Position numbers and translations under genes: made by a program. A stretch of 59,968 bases of DNA. Source: a virus (Duplodnaviria; Caudoviricetes). The DNA lies in the IMG/VR virus record IMGVR_UViG_3300034071_001219, positions 1 to 59,968 of that record. The stretch is one strand, 5' to 3'. The first letter of the stretch is position 1; every line of letters begins with the position of its first letter. Positions 2,522 to 41,129 of this stretch are shown here, in pieces. The notes beneath the pieces were generated by a model. It was not told the DNA's origin and made no database searches. It saw only the letters and a program-made list of their open reading frames with translations.

Positions 2522-2883
2522 GATATATAACTCCCGCGTTGCTTTTAGCAGCGGGAGTCATTTGTACTCCCGTTTATGCTGAACAAGTAGTTCCCAATTT
2601 TACTAGGGGCACTATTAATGCAACAACAGAAACAACTACAAAGATTGTAGAAACTATTCGGCAAGTTGAATATACAACTGGCACATCATACACTGTGACT
2701 GGAACTAATATTAAGATTCCTGACACTCCACAACAAGGAGCAAATTATACTATTATGGATCAAGGTGCTCCCTTCCAGTTTAGTGAGACAATACTAGGCA
2801 CTGGAGTGGCCAAAGAAACATGGATAGACAGAACTACAGAACAACAATCTACTACAAACTCAGTTTCTGTATTTACCCAATAA
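2518..2883 (+). CDS. Secreted Thr-rich hypothetical protein
   Basis: Signal peptide; shares GTNI and F.FSET motifs with the upstream ORF. Confidence 0.75.
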   Translation: MRYITPALLLAAGVICTPVYAEQVVPNFTRGTINATTETTTKIVETIRQVEYTTGTSYTVTGTNIKIPDTPQQGANYTIMDQGAPFQFSETILGTGVAKETWIDRTTEQQSTTNSVSVFTQ

Positions 2884-3419
2884 TAATTCTCTTATTAACT
2901 GCATCAGGTAGGGCACAACAAGCACCAAGTAATACAAATATTGCAGGTCCTTCGGCATCTGCTACTGGCAATGTAACCAACCAGGCAGTTCAAGTATTGC
3001 AAGGTCCTTATGCTATGAATACCTATGGTGGTGGAGTATCTTGTCAAGGTCCAACAATGAGTATATCGCCATTTGTATTGGGAAATATGAATGGTAGTGC
3101 TGACCCAGATGCATTCCAAACACATAATGGTAATGCAGGTATCAGTATGGGATTCAACTTTCCCTTAGATGGAAGTTTAACTGAATTGTGTAAAGAAAGA
3201 GCACGAACAGAAATCAAAAGGCAACAAAGTGAAGTTGAAAAAAGTCGTTTAGATTTTGAACTCGTAAGGGCAAAACTTTGTTTAGAAATGATAAGAAATG
3301 GTGGGTTTTTTCATCCAGAAAGTCCTTATGGAAAAATATGTGCAGATATAGTTGGTCCATCACCTAATGGATACTTAATGACTGGAAATGGTACGGTTGT
3401 TTCTAAAATTAAAAAATAG
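2820..3419 (+). CDS. Secreted/membrane hypothetical protein with conserved Cys (start uncertain)
   Basis: Hydrophobic N-terminal segment, GVSCQGPT and FNFPLDG motifs, coiled C-terminus. Confidence 0.7.
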   Translation: MDRQNYRTTIYYKLSFCIYPIIILLLTASGRAQQAPSNTNIAGPSASATGNVTNQAVQVLQGPYAMNTYGGGVSCQGPTMSISPFVLGNMNGSADPDAFQTHNGNAGISMGFNFPLDGSLTELCKERARTEIKRQQSEVEKSRLDFELVRAKLCLEMIRNGGFFHPESPYGKICADIVGPSPNGYLMTGNGTVVSKIKK

Positions 3420-3476
3420 GTTGGATTTTGAACTTCCAATTTTTTATAAATAATAGTAGAAGTTCAAAATCCAACC
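3419..3476 (+). promoter_or_regulatory. 18-bp inverted repeat enclosing a T4 late promoter (translational-repression hairpin of the homing endonuclease)
   Basis: GGTTGGATTTTGAACTTC ... GAAGTTCAAAATCCAACC, TATAAATA at 3445-3452 in the loop, ATG at 3479. Confidence 0.8.
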
Positions 3477-3478
3477 AT

Positions 3479-4096
3479 ATGGGAAAAATATATTTAATTA
3501 CAAATACAATTAACAATAAAGTATATGTTGGGCAAACAAAACATTCAATAGAATATAGATTTAAAGAGCATCAGCATCCAAGTAAAAAAACTGCAATAAC
3601 ACAAGCAATTCAAAAATACGGCAAAGAAAACTTTACCGTAGAACTTTTGGAAGAATGCAATATCCACAATCTTGATGAAAGAGAAACGTTTTATATTGAA
3701 AAATACAACTCATATAAAGAAGGATACAACAATACCATAGGTGGAGGAAGTCAATATATTGCACATACACCAGAAGTAAAACAAAAATTAAGTATTTCAG
3801 CAAAAGGAAAACTTGCTGGAGATAAAAATCCAGCAAAAAGACCAGAGGTGAGGAAAAAAATTAGTGATGCACAGAAAAAACGAGTTGAAAATGGAGAATG
3901 GAAAAGTCCGACAGAAGGCGGGCATACTGAAGAAGCACTAGAAAAACTGAGGGCAAATCAACCAGATAGAAGTGGTAAAAATAACTCTAGATATGGAGTG
4001 AAAATGAGTGAAGAAACTAAACAAAAAATTAGAGAAAAGCAATTAGCAGCACAAGAAAGAAAACGAAAAAATGGAACCAATACAGCAAATAAATAA
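3479..4096 (+). CDS. Free-standing GIY-YIG homing endonuclease (Seg-like) with NUMOD3 repeats
   Basis: GKIYLITNTINNKVYVGQT, R..EH, GYN motif, repeats HTPEVKQKLS / HTEEALEKL / MSEETKQKIR. Confidence 0.9.
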   Translation: MGKIYLITNTINNKVYVGQTKHSIEYRFKEHQHPSKKTAITQAIQKYGKENFTVELLEECNIHNLDERETFYIEKYNSYKEGYNNTIGGGSQYIAHTPEVKQKLSISAKGKLAGDKNPAKRPEVRKKISDAQKKRVENGEWKSPTEGGHTEEALEKLRANQPDRSGKNNSRYGVKMSEETKQKIREKQLAAQERKRKNGTNTANK

Positions 4097-32436: not shown

Positions 32437-32444
32437 ATGTAACT

Positions 32445-32590
32445 CAGGCTCGCCACCAATTCTTTGACTGGAAATTGGAAACCAGGCGGGAGAGAGTCCC
32501 ATCCGCACCACTTGCTCTTAGGAGAAGCAAGAAACTCATAATAGGGTCATATTGACTCCACCACTTAGTTTTAAGAAACTAAGAAAAGTT
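32445..32590 (-). ncRNA. Structured RNA with tandem UUUC-stem-GUGGYG modules (wcaG/manA-like cyanophage RNA)
   Basis: Three hairpin modules, each followed by GUGGUG or GUGGCG, upstream of gmd; family assigned from recall only. Confidence 0.6.
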
Positions 32591-33462: not shown

Positions 33463-33466
33463 AAGG

Positions 33467-33554
33467 TACGAGTGGGTGGATTCGAACCACCTCAAAGCCG
33501 CTAATCTGGCGGAAAGAGTTTATAAGACTCCTCTGACTACCAAGTCTCACTCGC
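33467..33554 (-). tRNA. tRNA with TAT (Ile) anticodon, long variable arm and minimal D-loop
   Basis: Acceptor GCGAGTG/CACTCGT, loop CTTATAA, V-arm CCGC/GCGG, T-arm GGTGG-TTCGAAT-CCACC. Confidence 0.8.
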
Positions 33555-38702: not shown

Positions 38703-38773
38703 AGCCCGATAACAGAATTGAACTGTTCTCTGCAGTTTACTAAACTGCTGCATCACCACAATGCTTATCGGGC
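38703..38773 (-). tRNA. tRNA-Thr (AGT)
   Basis: Acceptor GCCCGAT/ATCGGGC; anticodon arm GCAGT-TTAGTAA-ACTGC. Confidence 0.85.
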
Positions 38774-39304
38774 GGGATTTGATAATACTCTACCTTTTCT
38801 AAACCCTTCTGGAATATCTTGATTTTTATCTATTCGATAAGAACCTTCTTTTGTTCCATCAGTAATCCACATTTTACCATACATAGAATTTTTTTCTCCT
38901 TGTTGATGTCCTATTCTCTGTAATGTCTTTTTTTTCTTTTCAATAGCATCAGGAGTGCAAGCCAACAATCTTGCATTAGGAGACATTTTTCTCAATAATT
39001 CTATTTGTTTTATTTTGAATTCTGGGTCATTCCACCTTTCCTTAAGAAGTTTACTACTAACATCTTTAGATAATTGGGAGTGGGGTCTATTTCTATTACT
39101 TTCCGCAATAAGTTTGGAAATAATTTCTTTTTTTGGTAAATATTTTACCAACCCCCTCCAAGCCAATTCATCTTCTACTTTACCCCACAATCTCCAATTA
39201 CAATAATGAAACATTGCGTGTTGAGTAATACTCAATTCGATTAAGTTTTCTGCAGAATCAGAACCTCCCATATGTTTTGGTATAATATGATGATGATGTT
39301 TCAT
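38765..39304 (-). CDS. HNH homing endonuclease inside the tRNA array
   Basis: HHIIPKHMGGSDSAENLIELSITQHAMFH; C-terminal GKMWITDG...IPEGFRKGR; stop codon lies inside tRNA-Thr. Confidence 0.88.
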   Translation of the reverse strand: MKHHHHIIPKHMGGSDSAENLIELSITQHAMFHYCNWRLWGKVEDELAWRGLVKYLPKKEIISKLIAESNRNRPHSQLSKDVSSKLLKERWNDPEFKIKQIELLRKMSPNARLLACTPDAIEKKKKTLQRIGHQQGEKNSMYGKMWITDGTKEGSYRIDKNQDIPEGFRKGRVLSNPAR

Positions 39305-40049: not shown

Positions 40050-40122
40050 AGATAGGTTCAATGGAGTTACGGCACTGAGGAGCGTTAAATCTCCCCCAAG
40101 AGTCCGTTTCAAGAGAACCTAA

Positions 40123-40202
40123 TGAGGCGGGTGGGACTCGAACCCACGGTGTATAATCTCTGGTTAAAAGCCAGGTCCGTTCGCCGCTACGGGAACCACC
40201 CC
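40123..40202 (-). tRNA. tRNA-Lys (TTT) with enlarged variable region
   Basis: Acceptor GGGGTGG/CCGCCTC, loop CTTTTAA, T-arm GTGGG-TTCGAGT-CCCAC. Confidence 0.85.
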
Positions 40203-40217
40203 AATAATATGGATAAA

Positions 40218-40258
40218 TATTCAGTTGTCTAGGTTCGGTGTGGTCTCTCTCAACCACC
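40218..40258 (-). promoter_or_regulatory. rrn-like boxB hairpin + boxA antitermination element
   Basis: GTGGTT-GAGAGA-GACCAC hairpin, then GAACCTAGACAACTGAATA, 15 nt before tRNA-Lys. Confidence 0.6.
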
Positions 40259-40327
40259 CTTTAAGAATACCACTGTTTGGTCTCTGGGGGGAGATTAGTG
40301 GGCACTTAGGAAACTGTCACAGGCAAT

Positions 40328-40362
40328 AAAAAAGGGGAGGAAACTTTTGGTTTCTCTCCCCT
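40328..40362 (-). terminator. Intrinsic terminator of the putative attenuator
   Basis: AGGGGAG(A)GAAAC-CAAAA-GTTTCCTCCCCT followed by a U tract. Confidence 0.85.
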
Positions 40363-40387
40363 GTCTTTTGCTTTTATGGATTACATC

Positions 40388-40483
40388 TTACATATGTCTT
40401 TCCATATTTGCAAACAGGGGAGTTCCCTCAATATGCCAGCGGCAATCAAGAGTACTAATCTGTTTGTTCATTTGAAAAGACAT
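40388..40483 (-). CDS. Putative leader peptide (31 aa) of the tRNA-operon attenuator
   Basis: MSFQMNKQISTLDCRWHIEGTPLFANMERHM*; AGGT RBS; late promoter 21 nt upstream; 3' half pairs with the terminator 5' arm. Confidence 0.7.
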   Translation of the reverse strand: MSFQMNKQISTLDCRWHIEGTPLFANMERHM

Positions 40484-40504
40484 TGTTTTCGACCTAAGTG
40501 TGTT

Positions 40505-40512
40505 TATTTATA
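40505..40512 (-). promoter_or_regulatory. T4-type late promoter
   Basis: TATAAATA. Confidence 0.75.
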
Positions 40513-40558
40513 AGACTTTTATTTTGTTTTTATATTGTAGAATAAATTTTGCGATTTG

Positions 40559-40930
40559 TCAAGCGTCTAGACCTGCAGTATTAAGTATTTCATGATGAAC
40601 CTCACGATGACAGTTGGCACATACACATATACATTTATCCAATTCTTTAGTGATGGCATCCCAAGAACGAAGTCTTAATTTTTGCCAATCTACATCTTTT
40701 TGATTTGGATCCGTATGGTGAAATTCCAACGCTCCGTAAAATTTATCATAACCACAACGAATACATTTACCTCCTTTGTAGGAGATGGCATCTTTTTTTC
40801 TTTTTATCCACCTATCCATACAATAAGTATTAAAACAGGTACGGCATAAAGATTGAAACCCCTTTCCTTTTTTATACCCAGTTTCTTCATTTAAAGAAAT
40901 TTTGCATTTGGAACAAGTCTGTGATGACAT
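40559..40930 (-). CDS. HNH endonuclease with zinc-binding Cys pairs
   Basis: GGKCIRCGY...LEFHHTDP...ELDKCICVCANCHREVH; TATAAATA upstream. Confidence 0.9.
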   Translation of the reverse strand: MSSQTCSKCKISLNEETGYKKGKGFQSLCRTCFNTYCMDRWIKRKKDAISYKGGKCIRCGYDKFYGALEFHHTDPNQKDVDWQKLRLRSWDAITKELDKCICVCANCHREVHHEILNTAGLDA

Positions 40931-40968
40931 TAATGGATAGAATAAAACTTTCTAATCTATTTATAAAG

Positions 40969-41041: not shown

Positions 41042-41129
41042 ATAAGAGACCTCCAGGTTTGTGCATCGTTGAGAGGCATAGGAGGTGAGAGACTTACGCG
41101 AGGTTTGGACCCCCGTTGCTCATATGATT

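Follow-up and report, generated by a model that had tools for sequence, protein, structure and literature searches.

A putative leader-ORF attenuator inside the tRNA array of T4-like cyanophages

Leader-peptide attenuation of transcription is known for amino-acid biosynthesis and a few other operons of bacteria, e.g., the enterobacterial operons with the leaders trpL, hisL, leuL, thrL, pheL, and ilvL (PMC1183508). In these systems, a short translated leader overlaps a series of three competing helices, i.e., an anti-antiterminator (1:2), an antiterminator (2:3), and an intrinsic terminator with a U tract (3:4), and there is a cluster of regulatory codons for the sensed amino acid. In pyrBI-type attenuation, which works without amino-acid-specific codons, the coupling of transcription and translation is decisive. 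In Sinorhizobium meliloti, the attenuator RNA rnTrpL and its leader peptide peTrpL can each have a function of their own (PMC7968998, PMC7298713), and T-box riboswitches sense tRNA directly. Leader-peptide attenuation is not known for tRNA genes, for phages, or for the cyanobacterial world, and literature searches revealed no paper describing a leader ORF or an attenuator in a phage tRNA array. Large phage tRNA arrays are usually discussed as constitutive codon-usage helpers or as spare parts against tRNA-cleaving defences, and how their expression is controlled is essentially unknown.

Here, an element is described that has the three-helix layout of a classical attenuator, but is located in front of the gene for tRNA-Lys(UUU) inside the tRNA arrays of many T4-like cyanophages. 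It was analyzed in a stretch of 59,968 nucleotides (the window), which comprises positions 1 to 59,968 of the IMG/VR virus record IMGVR_UViG_3300034071_001219 (Caudoviricetes). An initial annotation, which was based on the sequence alone, had proposed that a leader peptide could sense the whole tRNA pool and gate a phage tRNA operon.

Anatomy of the element

All sequence features listed in the initial annotation were found to be present at the stated coordinates. The parts of the element and its surroundings are summarized in Table 1. The ORF encodes the peptide MSFQMNKQISTLDCRWHIEGTPLFANMERHM. The 2:3 hairpin folds exactly as had been described, with the pairings CUCCCCUGU/ACAGGGGAG, UUGC/GCAA, UAUGGA/UCCAUA, and ACAU/AUGU and with UAA in the apical loop. 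Its energy is -28.4 kcal/mol (z = -7.2 against 200 dinucleotide shuffles). The terminator AGGGGAGAGAAAC-CAAAA-GUUUCCUCCCCU plus U6 shares AGGGGAG with this hairpin. However, it had not been noticed that the minimum-energy fold of the whole RNA is a different one, in which the 5' half of the ORF pairs with its 3' half, the start codon is buried, and a separate terminator follows (-63 kcal/mol, z = -7.68, 0 of 200 shuffles as good). Thus, the 3' half of the ORF can pair either with its own 5' half (1:2) or with the 5' arm of the terminator (2:3).

Table 1. Positions of the features within the 59,968-nt window.
Feature	Position	Strand	Remarks
Sigma-70-like promoter TTGACA-17-TACAAT	40534-40562	-	at the 3' end of the inserted 123-aa ORF; 11 of 12 consensus matches; specific to loci that carry the insertion
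T4-type late-promoter motif TATAAATA	40505-40512	-
Shine-Dalgarno-like AGGT	40492-40495	-	8 nt before the ATG
Leader ORF	40388-40483	-	31 codons plus TAA; ATG at 40483, stop at 40390-40388
Helix 1:2 (anti-antiterminator)	40381-40497	-	long imperfect hairpin; SD/ATG/5' half of the ORF with its 3' half and the first bases after the stop
Helix 2:3 (antiterminator)	40356-40422	-	3' part of the ORF (CUCCCCUG...) with the region after the stop, up to and including AGGGGAG of the terminator
Intrinsic terminator (helix 3:4)	40328-40367	-	AGGGGAG-A-GAAAC / loop CAAAA / GUUUC-CUCCCCU, then U6; stem of 12 pairs
Conserved spacer	40204-40327	-	nearly invariant GGTGGTATTCT (extended -10-like), a GGTGG...CCACC hairpin, and T[ACT]GACA-N17-[CT]ATTAT abutting the tRNA
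TGGTATTCT	40264-40272	-	within the spacer
tRNA-Lys(UUU)	40122-40203	-	first gene after the element and first of 19 same-strand tRNAs downstream in the window

The late-promoter motif alone is not enriched in the window (6 found against 4.06 expected). The sigma-70-like promoter is not part of the conserved element, because in most relatives a tRNA ends about 15-20 nt before TATAAATA. Within the spacer, a TAGACA-16-TATTAT site ends 1-3 nt before the tRNA, and it was thus rejected as a promoter for that tRNA.

Conservation of the reading frame and of the competing helices

To analyze whether the element is restricted to this phage, about 129 related loci were collected from IMG/VR, including phage S-PM2. 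They yielded 83 unique element sequences in three clades, and this conservation excludes a chance origin. Of 88 unique stretches, 85 keep the ORF, 2 are unrelated chance hits, and 1 is frameshifted. The ORF has 28-35 codons, the ATG is invariant in the alignment (A3), and only one of 127 loci (L038) has a frameshift. The gap runs inside the ORF have lengths of 3, 3, 3, 3, 3, 6, and 9 nt, plus one of 1 nt (L038) and one of 8 nt at the ORF end (locus L067), so that 7 of 9 classes are multiples of three. In contrast, the non-coding gap runs are 1-7 nt long and only 1 of 17 is a multiple of three. TATAAATA lies within 45 nt upstream of the ATG in 125 of 127 loci, and CATAAATA was found in the other 2. 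The Shine-Dalgarno-like TAGGTCGAA is kept in most of the 83 unique sequences, but is replaced in L068, L072, L076, L085, L102, and L106.

Next, the helices were analyzed. All three are kept in the three clades, with compensatory changes. In all 83 unique sequences the antiterminator and the terminator exclude each other, and 5-9 of the about 9 nucleotides of the 5' arm of the terminator pair with the 3' part of the ORF. This holds even where the arm sequence differs, i.e., CUCCCCUG/CAGGGGAG in the main clade, UCCCUCC/GGAGGGA in S-PM2, and CCCCUG/CAGGGG in clade 3. The stop codon lies at the apical loop of 2:3 in 82 of 83 sequences, and all three stop codons are used. The AUG is paired in 73 of 83 MFE folds. 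The median dG values are -37.1 kcal/mol for 1:2, -27.4 kcal/mol for 2:3, and -19.7 kcal/mol for the terminator segment, and the two nascent folds are nearly isoenergetic (median ddG -2.5 kcal/mol), as expected for a switch. For 1:2, 90.3% of the cells of the alignment are paired against 35-52% when slid, and 118 double-change cells were seen against 30.9 +/- 4.2 in shuffles (these figures include the terminator). For 2:3, 89.8% are paired against 40-60% when slid, with 32 double-change cells against 7.0 +/- 2.3, whereas the count of pairs with a double change was not significant (7 against 4.8; 55 of 500 shuffles). In a phylogeny-aware contrast test, 26 same-way and 0 other-way contrasts were obtained for 2:3, and the excess over slid controls was clear only for this helix (26 against 9-16). 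It was weak for 1:2 (44 against 25-35), although pair 24/122 gave 6 of 8 independent contrasts going the same way. Even the terminator did not stand out (14 against 9-15), showing that the test has little power. RNAalifold retained only the two non-competing helices as consensus, including the terminator with compensatory pairs, and thus neither supports nor contradicts the competing ones.

The RNA rather than the peptide is the main target of selection. There are 34 synonymous against 53 non-synonymous variant classes, and the codon-position variability is 0.060/0.076/0.104. The C-terminal ERHM changes to VGQM or ESLM together with S2 to T2, which restores GACCUACC/GGUAGGUC or GACUUUCC/GGAAAGUC, and the core DCRYWHI is replaced by DMRYWHI, DYREDI, DCRQDI, DSGRAWQHI, or DCLNGHPNK in single members. 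The Pro codon that is paired in 2:3, but unpaired in 1:2, is CCC in 68 and the wobble-compatible CCU in 4 of 72 main-clade sequences. The element also shows how an ORF can be kept open while its amino-acid sequence is largely dictated by RNA pairing. Nevertheless, the core of the peptide (DCRYWHIEG.PLF) is invariant at the nucleotide and at the amino-acid level in the main clade, and a function of the peptide itself is not excluded.

The element always lies inside a tRNA array, downstream of at least one tRNA, and does not head it. The next same-strand tRNA is tRNA-Lys(UUU) in 118 of 129 loci; 7 loci end too early, and 4 show another tRNA. In RNA-seq contigs of S-PM2 (one study, four runs), RNA begins 6-7 nt after TATAAATA in 2 runs, which is only a weak hint at a late start because contigs cannot prove a start. 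A single contig bridges the terminator into tRNA-Lys in 3 runs, and in the fourth run one contig crosses the terminator and overlaps a second that covers the tRNA. Thus, read-through RNA exists. S-PM2 grows on Synechococcus WH7803 in culture, and two ORFs of under 50 aa inside a tRNA operon of S-PM2d were reported to be 1.6-1.9-fold up at 3 h in phosphate-starved hosts (PMC10976474), but this is only a lead, because they could not be placed relative to the element.

A blastn search with 601 nt against phage records retrieved only S-PM2 (3 records) for the element, plus two short hits under the 123-aa ORF. A tblastn search with a main-clade peptide against 50,697 phage records gave only chance hits in Vibrio phages at E about 2 and did not recover S-PM2, indicating that the peptide is too short for this approach. 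No Pfam family was found for the leader peptide. The ESM Atlas contains the identical peptide in clusters called "hypothetical protein", which says nothing on function. A profile of 40 peptides gave 8 hits among 1.84 billion representatives. Seven are stand-alone peptides of 31-38 aa, and one is an 897-aa protein matched in 14 stretches, the best-scoring of which covers profile positions 12-22; it was taken as spurious without closer examination.

A model for ribosome-dependent attenuation and its alternatives

The explanation favored here, with moderate confidence, is that the element is a ribosome-dependent transcription attenuator. Transcripts would start at TATAAATA or arrive from upstream. 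A ribosome that moves briskly through the codons from about 18 onward up to the stop would cover region 2, the terminator would form, and transcription would end about 60 nt after the stop. If the leading ribosome lags or stalls within the first 16 or so codons, region 1 would be covered, region 2 would pair with region 3, and the polymerase would read on into tRNA-Lys(UUU) and the tRNAs behind it. Good translation would thus result in fewer read-through tRNA transcripts, and poor translation in more, and such a gate would couple tRNA transcription to the performance of translation. In agreement with this model, masking of a 30-nt ribosome footprint on the nascent RNA gave the full basal 2:3 pairing for A-site codons 1-16 and none for codons 18-28. 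The same masking of full-length RNA gave the terminator at nearly every codon, which is uninformative, because the choice is made before the 3' arm exists. That the ribosome position decides between the folds, that termination is conditional in vivo, and which signal slows the ribosome remain inferences, and neither an experiment nor a raw-read profile shows that termination happens or is conditional. In addition, the conserved TGGTATTCT between the terminator and tRNA-Lys, for which promoter function was not shown, could drive the tRNAs independently, which would leave the attenuator a minor role. No RNA contig begins near its S-PM2 counterpart, but this absence is no evidence either way.

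The initial annotation was thus partly supported, as the conserved ORF, the mutually exclusive helices with compensatory changes, the promoter motif, and the downstream tRNAs were all verified. However, its specific version of the model, that diverse codons let a shortage or cleavage of almost any tRNA stall the ribosome, is doubtful, and no result shows that the leader senses the whole tRNA pool or all amino acids. Residues 5-25 indeed hold 18 different amino acids, with Val and Tyr missing, and residues 5-17 have no repeat, but the statistic is modest. The probability that a 31-mer of this phage's proteins holds a 21-residue window with 18 or more kinds is 0.0035, it is 0.028 for 18 kinds in 31 residues, and against random stop-free ORFs of the same base composition it is 0.049. 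Of 40 distinct peptides, 35 hold 18-19 kinds in 31-33 residues, against a background mean of 14.4-14.9 (P(>=19) = 0.005-0.007 against this phage's proteins, P = 0.015-0.049 against the random ORFs), but these peptides are homologous and thus not independent. The S-PM2-type leaders are average (15-16 kinds), and the best 21-residue window of locus L012 has 13 kinds. The strictly invariant residues K, Q, D, R, and I all have cognate tRNA genes in at least 57 of 60 large arrays (hypergeometric probability about 0.008, worked out by hand), but this observation is post hoc. The presence of Tyr in the leader does not track a tRNA-Tyr gene, as 36 loci have Tyr but no such gene in the DNA collected, and each amino acid occurs only once or twice, which makes for a weak sensor. 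A link to anticodon nucleases, which the initial annotation had suggested, is conjecture. An unlikely, but not excluded, possibility is a translation-capacity homeostat that doubles as a counter-defence trigger. The one Lys codon that is invariant in every family member lies in the middle of region 1, so that a ribosome waiting for Lys-tRNA(UUU) would cover the whole 5' arm. Depletion or cleavage of host tRNA-Lys(UUU), which is probably the target of anticodon nucleases such as PrrC and PARIS, would then switch on the phage's own tRNA-Lys(UUU), which exists in many diverged body types (48 distinct sequences), followed by the rest of the array. This would be the first attenuator known to control tRNA genes and the first inducible phage response to tRNA-targeting immunity.

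It is also possible, though less likely than the favored model, that the roughly 185-nt RNA from TATAAATA to the U tract is itself the product, i.e., a late-expressed small gene or dual-function small RNA with an unconditional terminator, whose peptide acts in trans and whose 1:2 fold only limits translation to the co-transcriptional window and stabilises the RNA, with incidental read-through. The ORF, its promoter motif, and the terminator form a complete unit, the start codon is mostly buried, K, Q, D, R, and I are invariant in 40 distinct peptides, gene callers predict the peptide in public data, and rnTrpL/peTrpL is a precedent. However, this view does not explain the complementarity of the ORF's 3' part to the terminator arm across three arm variants, the stop codon at the tip of that hairpin, or the constant placement just before tRNA-Lys. 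In addition, the protein-level constraint is weak overall, and radical peptide changes track RNA pairing. Very improbable is an RNA-processing element, in which the long duplexes would be cleaved by RNase III- or RNase E-type enzymes to separate the upstream tRNA from the downstream tRNA precursor. The location between tRNA genes and breaks of the RNA contigs around the neighbouring tRNAs would fit, but the conserved open frame, the in-frame indels, the invariant ATG, the positioned stop codon, the U-tract terminator, and the dedicated promoter motif would remain unexplained. A type I toxin mRNA with a hok-like fold-back was rejected, because the peptide is, by inspection, polar and charged with no hydrophobic stretch.

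Comparison with described systems

A T4-like phage tRNA cluster that also holds non-tRNA small RNA genes and homing-endonuclease insertions may be comparable to the window, which has a 123-aa ORF inserted beside the element. The T4 RNAs are not known to be translated leaders. T-box riboswitches also link a terminator/antiterminator choice to tRNA status, but no specifier loop or T-box motif is present here, and an ORF is conserved, which T-boxes lack. A search of the whole window against Rfam at gathering score gave no hit at the element, and the highest-scoring hit of a permissive search of 40180-40560 had 26 bits against a threshold of 60. As for rnTrpL/peTrpL of S. meliloti, the terminated RNA would be a stable, highly structured product, but no trans target is known or predicted, and the context is a tRNA array. 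As in pyrBI, regulation could depend on how closely the ribosome follows the polymerase rather than on one amino acid. However, in pyrBI the leader ORF runs through the terminator and a close ribosome prevents termination, whereas here the ORF ends about 25 nt before the terminator stem and a fast ribosome is predicted to favor termination. With the enterobacterial leaders the element shares the short ORF, the three overlapping helices, a stop codon that is positioned such that a ribosome finishing the ORF blocks region 2, and a predicted stall window in region 1. In contrast to them, it has no run of codons for one amino acid, its start codon is buried in helix 1:2, it is carried by a phage and headed by a T4-type late-promoter motif, it lies inside a gene array rather than at its head, and the genes that it would control are tRNA genes and not genes for biosynthetic enzymes.

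Anatomy of the element and predicted folding of its RNA

The element was first inspected on the minus strand, where a TATAAATA motif, an AGGT, an ATG-initiated ORF of 31 codons and a terminator-like hairpin followed by six U were found in this order. Every sequence string listed in the initial annotation was found to be present, and its residue counts for the encoded peptide are right. ARAGORN detected 21 tRNA genes in the window, all on this strand, and tRNA-Lys(ttt) lies 124 nt downstream of the U tract. The coordinates are summarized in the following table, together with further features noticed in the same window.

Features of the element and its surroundings in the window
Feature	Position	Strand	Remarks
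Stretch with the element	40512-40328	-	
TATAAATA of the leader	40512-40505	-	
AGGT	40495-40492	-	
ATG of the leader ORF	40483	-	opens a 31-codon ORF, MSFQMNKQISTLDCRWHIEGTPLFANMERHM
Stop codon of the leader ORF	40390-40388	-	
Terminator-like hairpin with six U	40367-40328	-	AGGGGAGAGAAAC / CAAAA / GUUUCCUCCCCU
Spacer	40204-40327	-	between terminator and tRNA-Lys
tRNA-Lys(ttt)	40203-40122	-	82 nt, extended variable region; lowest Rfam tRNA score in the window (34.8 bits)
tRNA-Arg(tct)	41041-40968	-	upstream of the element
TATAAATA of the 123-aa ORF	40958-40965	-	right after the tRNA
123-aa ORF	40559-40930	-	CxxC...HH...CxxCH motifs
Sigma-70-like promoter	40562-40534	-	at the 3' end of the 123-aa ORF
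Rfam abiF RNA motif	41049-41085	-	50.2 bits (threshold 37); directly upstream of tRNA-Arg(tct)
179-aa ORF	38765-39304	-	between tRNA-His and tRNA-Thr
tRNA-Ile(tat)	33465-33554	-	called by ARAGORN; 90 nt, unusually long for that tRNA; no Rfam tRNA hit at these coordinates
Rfam wcaG RNA motif	32442-32539	-	full length, 102.4 bits (threshold 42)

Next, the folding of the 181-nt RNA was predicted. The minimum-energy fold had -63 kcal/mol (z = -7.68), and none of 200 dinucleotide shuffles folded as well. This fold is not the hairpin proposed in the initial annotation. Instead, the SD, the AUG and the 5' half of the ORF pair with the 3' half of the ORF (helix 1:2), and the terminator (helix 3:4) stands apart. 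The hairpin of the initial annotation (helix 2:3) is the best fold of the segment from the 3' part of the ORF to the 5' arm of the terminator, with -28.4 kcal/mol, z = -7.2, and the stop codon in the apical loop. The three helices overlap pairwise, which is the anatomy of a trp-type attenuator.

Subsequently, the RNA that exists before the 3' arm of the terminator is made was analyzed. Without a ribosome, the minimum-energy fold of the nascent window RNA was 1:2, at -41.6 kcal/mol. When each form was imposed by constraints on a slightly longer nascent RNA, the two were close, i.e., -39.9 kcal/mol for 1:2 and -41.4 kcal/mol for 2:3 in the window. The median difference was -2.5 kcal/mol over 83 relatives, and 2:3 was at least as stable in 58 of 83. 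Masking of a 30-nt ribosome footprint gave all eight basal 2:3 pairs when the A site was at codons 1-16, and none at codons 18-28. With the full-length RNA the terminator won almost everywhere, as expected for a kinetic switch. The CCC of region 2 is unpaired in 1:2 and could serve as a toehold for region 3. Irrespective of whether the RNA without any ribosome would terminate or be read through, a ribosome on region 2 favours termination in these predictions.

Conservation of the reading frame and of the helices

To find relatives, blastn was performed against phage records, which revealed the element only in S-PM2, at 71% identity. There it also lies between tRNA-Arg(tct) and tRNA-Lys(ttt). 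In the S-PM2 record NC_006820 an annotated hypothetical CDS on the opposite strand, S-PM2p162 (positions 2862-3218 of the retrieved stretch L001), overlaps tRNA-Arg and the leader element and is probably a misannotation, while the leader ORF itself is not annotated. A third scan, for the S-PM2-like clades, gave 14 loci, one of them new. Two of the core-motif hits (loci L080 and L117) are unrelated and were dropped from all later counts. Of 88 unique 410-nt stretches, 85 keep the ORF in frame, 2 are the unrelated hits, and 1 (locus L038) is frameshifted. From SD to terminator, 126 sequences collapsed to 83 unique ones, which were aligned (alignment A3). They fall into three groups, a main clade, an S-PM2-like pair, and a third clade whose peptide ends in HKWKR.

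The frame is under selection. The ATG is invariant, and the stop is UAA in 73, UGA in 7 and UAG in 3 sequences. Gap runs inside the ORF have lengths of 3, 3, 3, 3, 3, 6 and 9 nt, in addition to the 1-nt frameshift of L038 and an 8-nt run at the replaced ORF end of locus L067. In contrast, in the 65 non-coding columns that follow, the 17 gap runs are 1-7 nt long and only one is a multiple of three.

The constraint at the protein level is weak, and the peptide is mostly not what is conserved. In 72 main-clade sequences there are 34 synonymous and 53 non-synonymous variant classes, and the variability by codon position is 0.060, 0.076 and 0.104. Peptide changes follow RNA pairing. S2 to T2 (UCU to ACY) goes with C-terminal ERHM to VGQM or ESLM, which turns GUCUUACC/GGAAAGAC into GACCUACC/GGUAGGUC or GACUUUCC/GGAAAGUC. 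D to N (GGA to GAA) goes with UCCAUA to UUCAUA, and A to V (GCG to GUG) goes with GCAA to ACAA or stays as a G-U wobble. The codon before Pro varies in its first two bases (ACU, GCU, AAU, UCU), but its third base, which is paired in 2:3, never varies, and the Pro codon is CCC in 68 and CCU in 4 of 72. The core DCRYWHI is invariant in the main clade, partly by construction of the second scan. It is DCRDWHI, DCREWHI, DCR-WHI, DMRYWHI or DYREDI in members found with the first scan, DCRQDI in locus L133, and DSGRAWQHI, DCLNGHPNK or DHRWYIV in divergent database peptides. Only M1, K7, Q8, D13, R15 and I18 are invariant in 40 distinct peptides. No Pfam family was found for the peptide, and no longer or fused relatives were found.

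The support for the helices was first counted on alignment A3. The terminated form (1:2 plus 3:4) has 90.3% of cells paired, against 35-52% when the partner column was slid, and 118 cells with changes on both sides, against 30.9 +/- 4.2 in shuffles (0 of 500 reached it). The antiterminated form has 89.8% paired, against 40-60% when slid, and 32 double-change cells against 7.0 +/- 2.3 (0 of 500). However, for the antiterminated form the number of pairs with a double change (7 against 4.8; 55 of 500) and the number of further pair types (21 against 21.0) were not above chance.

Because the sequences are related, a tree was built from the flanks only, and independent contrasts were counted. The test has little power, since even the terminator does not stand out. 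The best single pairs reached p = 0.031 (24/122, 6 of 8 contrasts; 118/143, 6 of 6).

Independent contrasts for the three helices, with slid controls
Helix	Same-way	Other-way	Same-way in slid controls
2:3	26	0	9-16
1:2	44	9	25-35
3:4	14	1	9-15

Independently of the alignment, each of the 83 sequences folds its 2:3 segment into a long hairpin, in which 5-9 of about 9 bases of the 5' arm of the terminator pair with the 3' part of the ORF (7 bases in 63 sequences, 8 in 9, 6 in 7, 9 in 2, and 5 in 2). The z-scores range from -2.4 to -8.3 in 13 representatives of all clades. The arm sequence itself differs between clades, and the ORF follows it, i.e., CUCCCCUG/CAGGGGAG, UCCCUCC/GGAGGGA and CCCCUG/CAGGGG. 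The stop codon lies in, or within 3 nt of, the terminal loop in 82 of 83. RNAalifold keeps only the apical hairpin of region 1 and the terminator.

Genomic context and RNA contigs

Among 129 oriented loci, the element is always inside a tRNA array. The nearest downstream tRNA on the same strand is Lys(ttt) in 118, whereas seven loci end too early and four show another tRNA. Up to 28 further tRNAs follow. The tRNA just upstream varies: it is Arg(tct) in 81, plus 8 with a gap above 200 nt, Ala(tgc) in 14, Asn(gtt) in 10, Gly(tcc) in 3, and Tyr in L133. Thus, the unit that travels together is leader, spacer and tRNA-Lys. Behind the leaders of loci L003-L132 there are 48 distinct tRNA-Lys sequences of at least four different body types, all with the same CUUUUAA anticodon loop. 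Nine loci, the window among them, show a gap of 525-613 nt between Arg(tct) and the leader, against about 90 nt in most relatives. In the window the 123-aa ORF is inserted at this place. A short blastn hit falls under an annotated HNH endonuclease of an Escherichia phage, but there is no Pfam hit at E <= 0.01. The second ORF inside the array, of 179 aa, gives a weak HNH match (Pfam E = 0.0038, below the curated cut-off).

TATAAATA lies within 45 nt of the ATG in 125 of 127 loci, and CATAAATA in the other 2. The motif alone is not enriched in the window (6 against 4.06 expected). The spacer of 100-140 nt is as conserved as the leader and holds a nearly invariant GGTGGTATTCT, a GGTGG...CCACC hairpin, and a TTGACA-like box 17 nt before a TATTAT that abuts the tRNA. 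If GGTGGTATTCT is a promoter, the gate controls only part of tRNA transcription.

Four strand-specific RNA runs of one study contain the S-PM2 element as assembled contigs. In two runs contigs begin at positions 2896 and 2897 of the S-PM2 locus L040. TATAAATA is at 2883-2890, and thus these starts fall at the position expected for a T4-type late transcript. Contigs cannot give levels or true ends, and they show only that RNA covering the ORF exists and that read-through molecules exist. Single contigs run across the terminator (about 3040-3078) into or beyond tRNA-Lys in three runs (2897-3499, 2896-3241 and 2920-3243). In the fourth run one contig crosses the terminator (2993-3206) and overlaps a second that covers tRNA-Lys (3182-3517). 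Two ORFs of under 50 aa inside a tRNA operon of S-PM2d are reported as 1.6-1.9-fold up at 3 h in phosphate-starved hosts (PMC10976474, Table 1), which may reflect regulated transcription of the tRNA array.

Possible roles of the leader and comparison with known attenuators

The initial annotation had proposed that the leader could sense the whole tRNA pool, based on the high diversity of its residues. Of 40 distinct peptides, 35 hold 18-19 kinds of residue, against a background mean of 14.4-14.9. P(>=19) is 0.005-0.007 against this phage's own proteins, but 0.015 against random stop-free ORFs of the same composition, and the window's own value (18 kinds in 31 residues) has P = 0.028 and 0.049, respectively. 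The S-PM2-type leaders are average, and the occurrence of Tyr in the leader is unrelated to the presence of a tRNA-Tyr gene. One post hoc pattern remains unexplained: the invariant residues K, Q, D, R and I all belong to the nine amino acids whose tRNA genes are present in at least 57 of 60 large arrays. However, their codons also lie in conserved helices, which may be the whole reason.

Taken together, a ribosome-dependent conditional terminator is regarded as the more probable explanation of the element, with moderate confidence. The main alternative, a small late gene or dual-function RNA with a plain terminator, is considerably less likely. The sensing of the whole tRNA pool is a possible, but doubtful sub-case. 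The boldest reading, a gate that senses Lys-tRNA(UUU) for the phage's own tRNA-Lys and acts as a counter-defence, is not excluded, but seems unlikely.

No Rfam family matches the element, and no description of such an element was found in the literature searches. The element has the structural hallmarks of a leader-peptide attenuator, but it lacks a run of regulatory codons, and it is inferred to control tRNA genes in a phage. Its inferred mode of action is like that of a trp-type attenuator, while its membership in the classical amino-acid class fails on the codon-run criterion.
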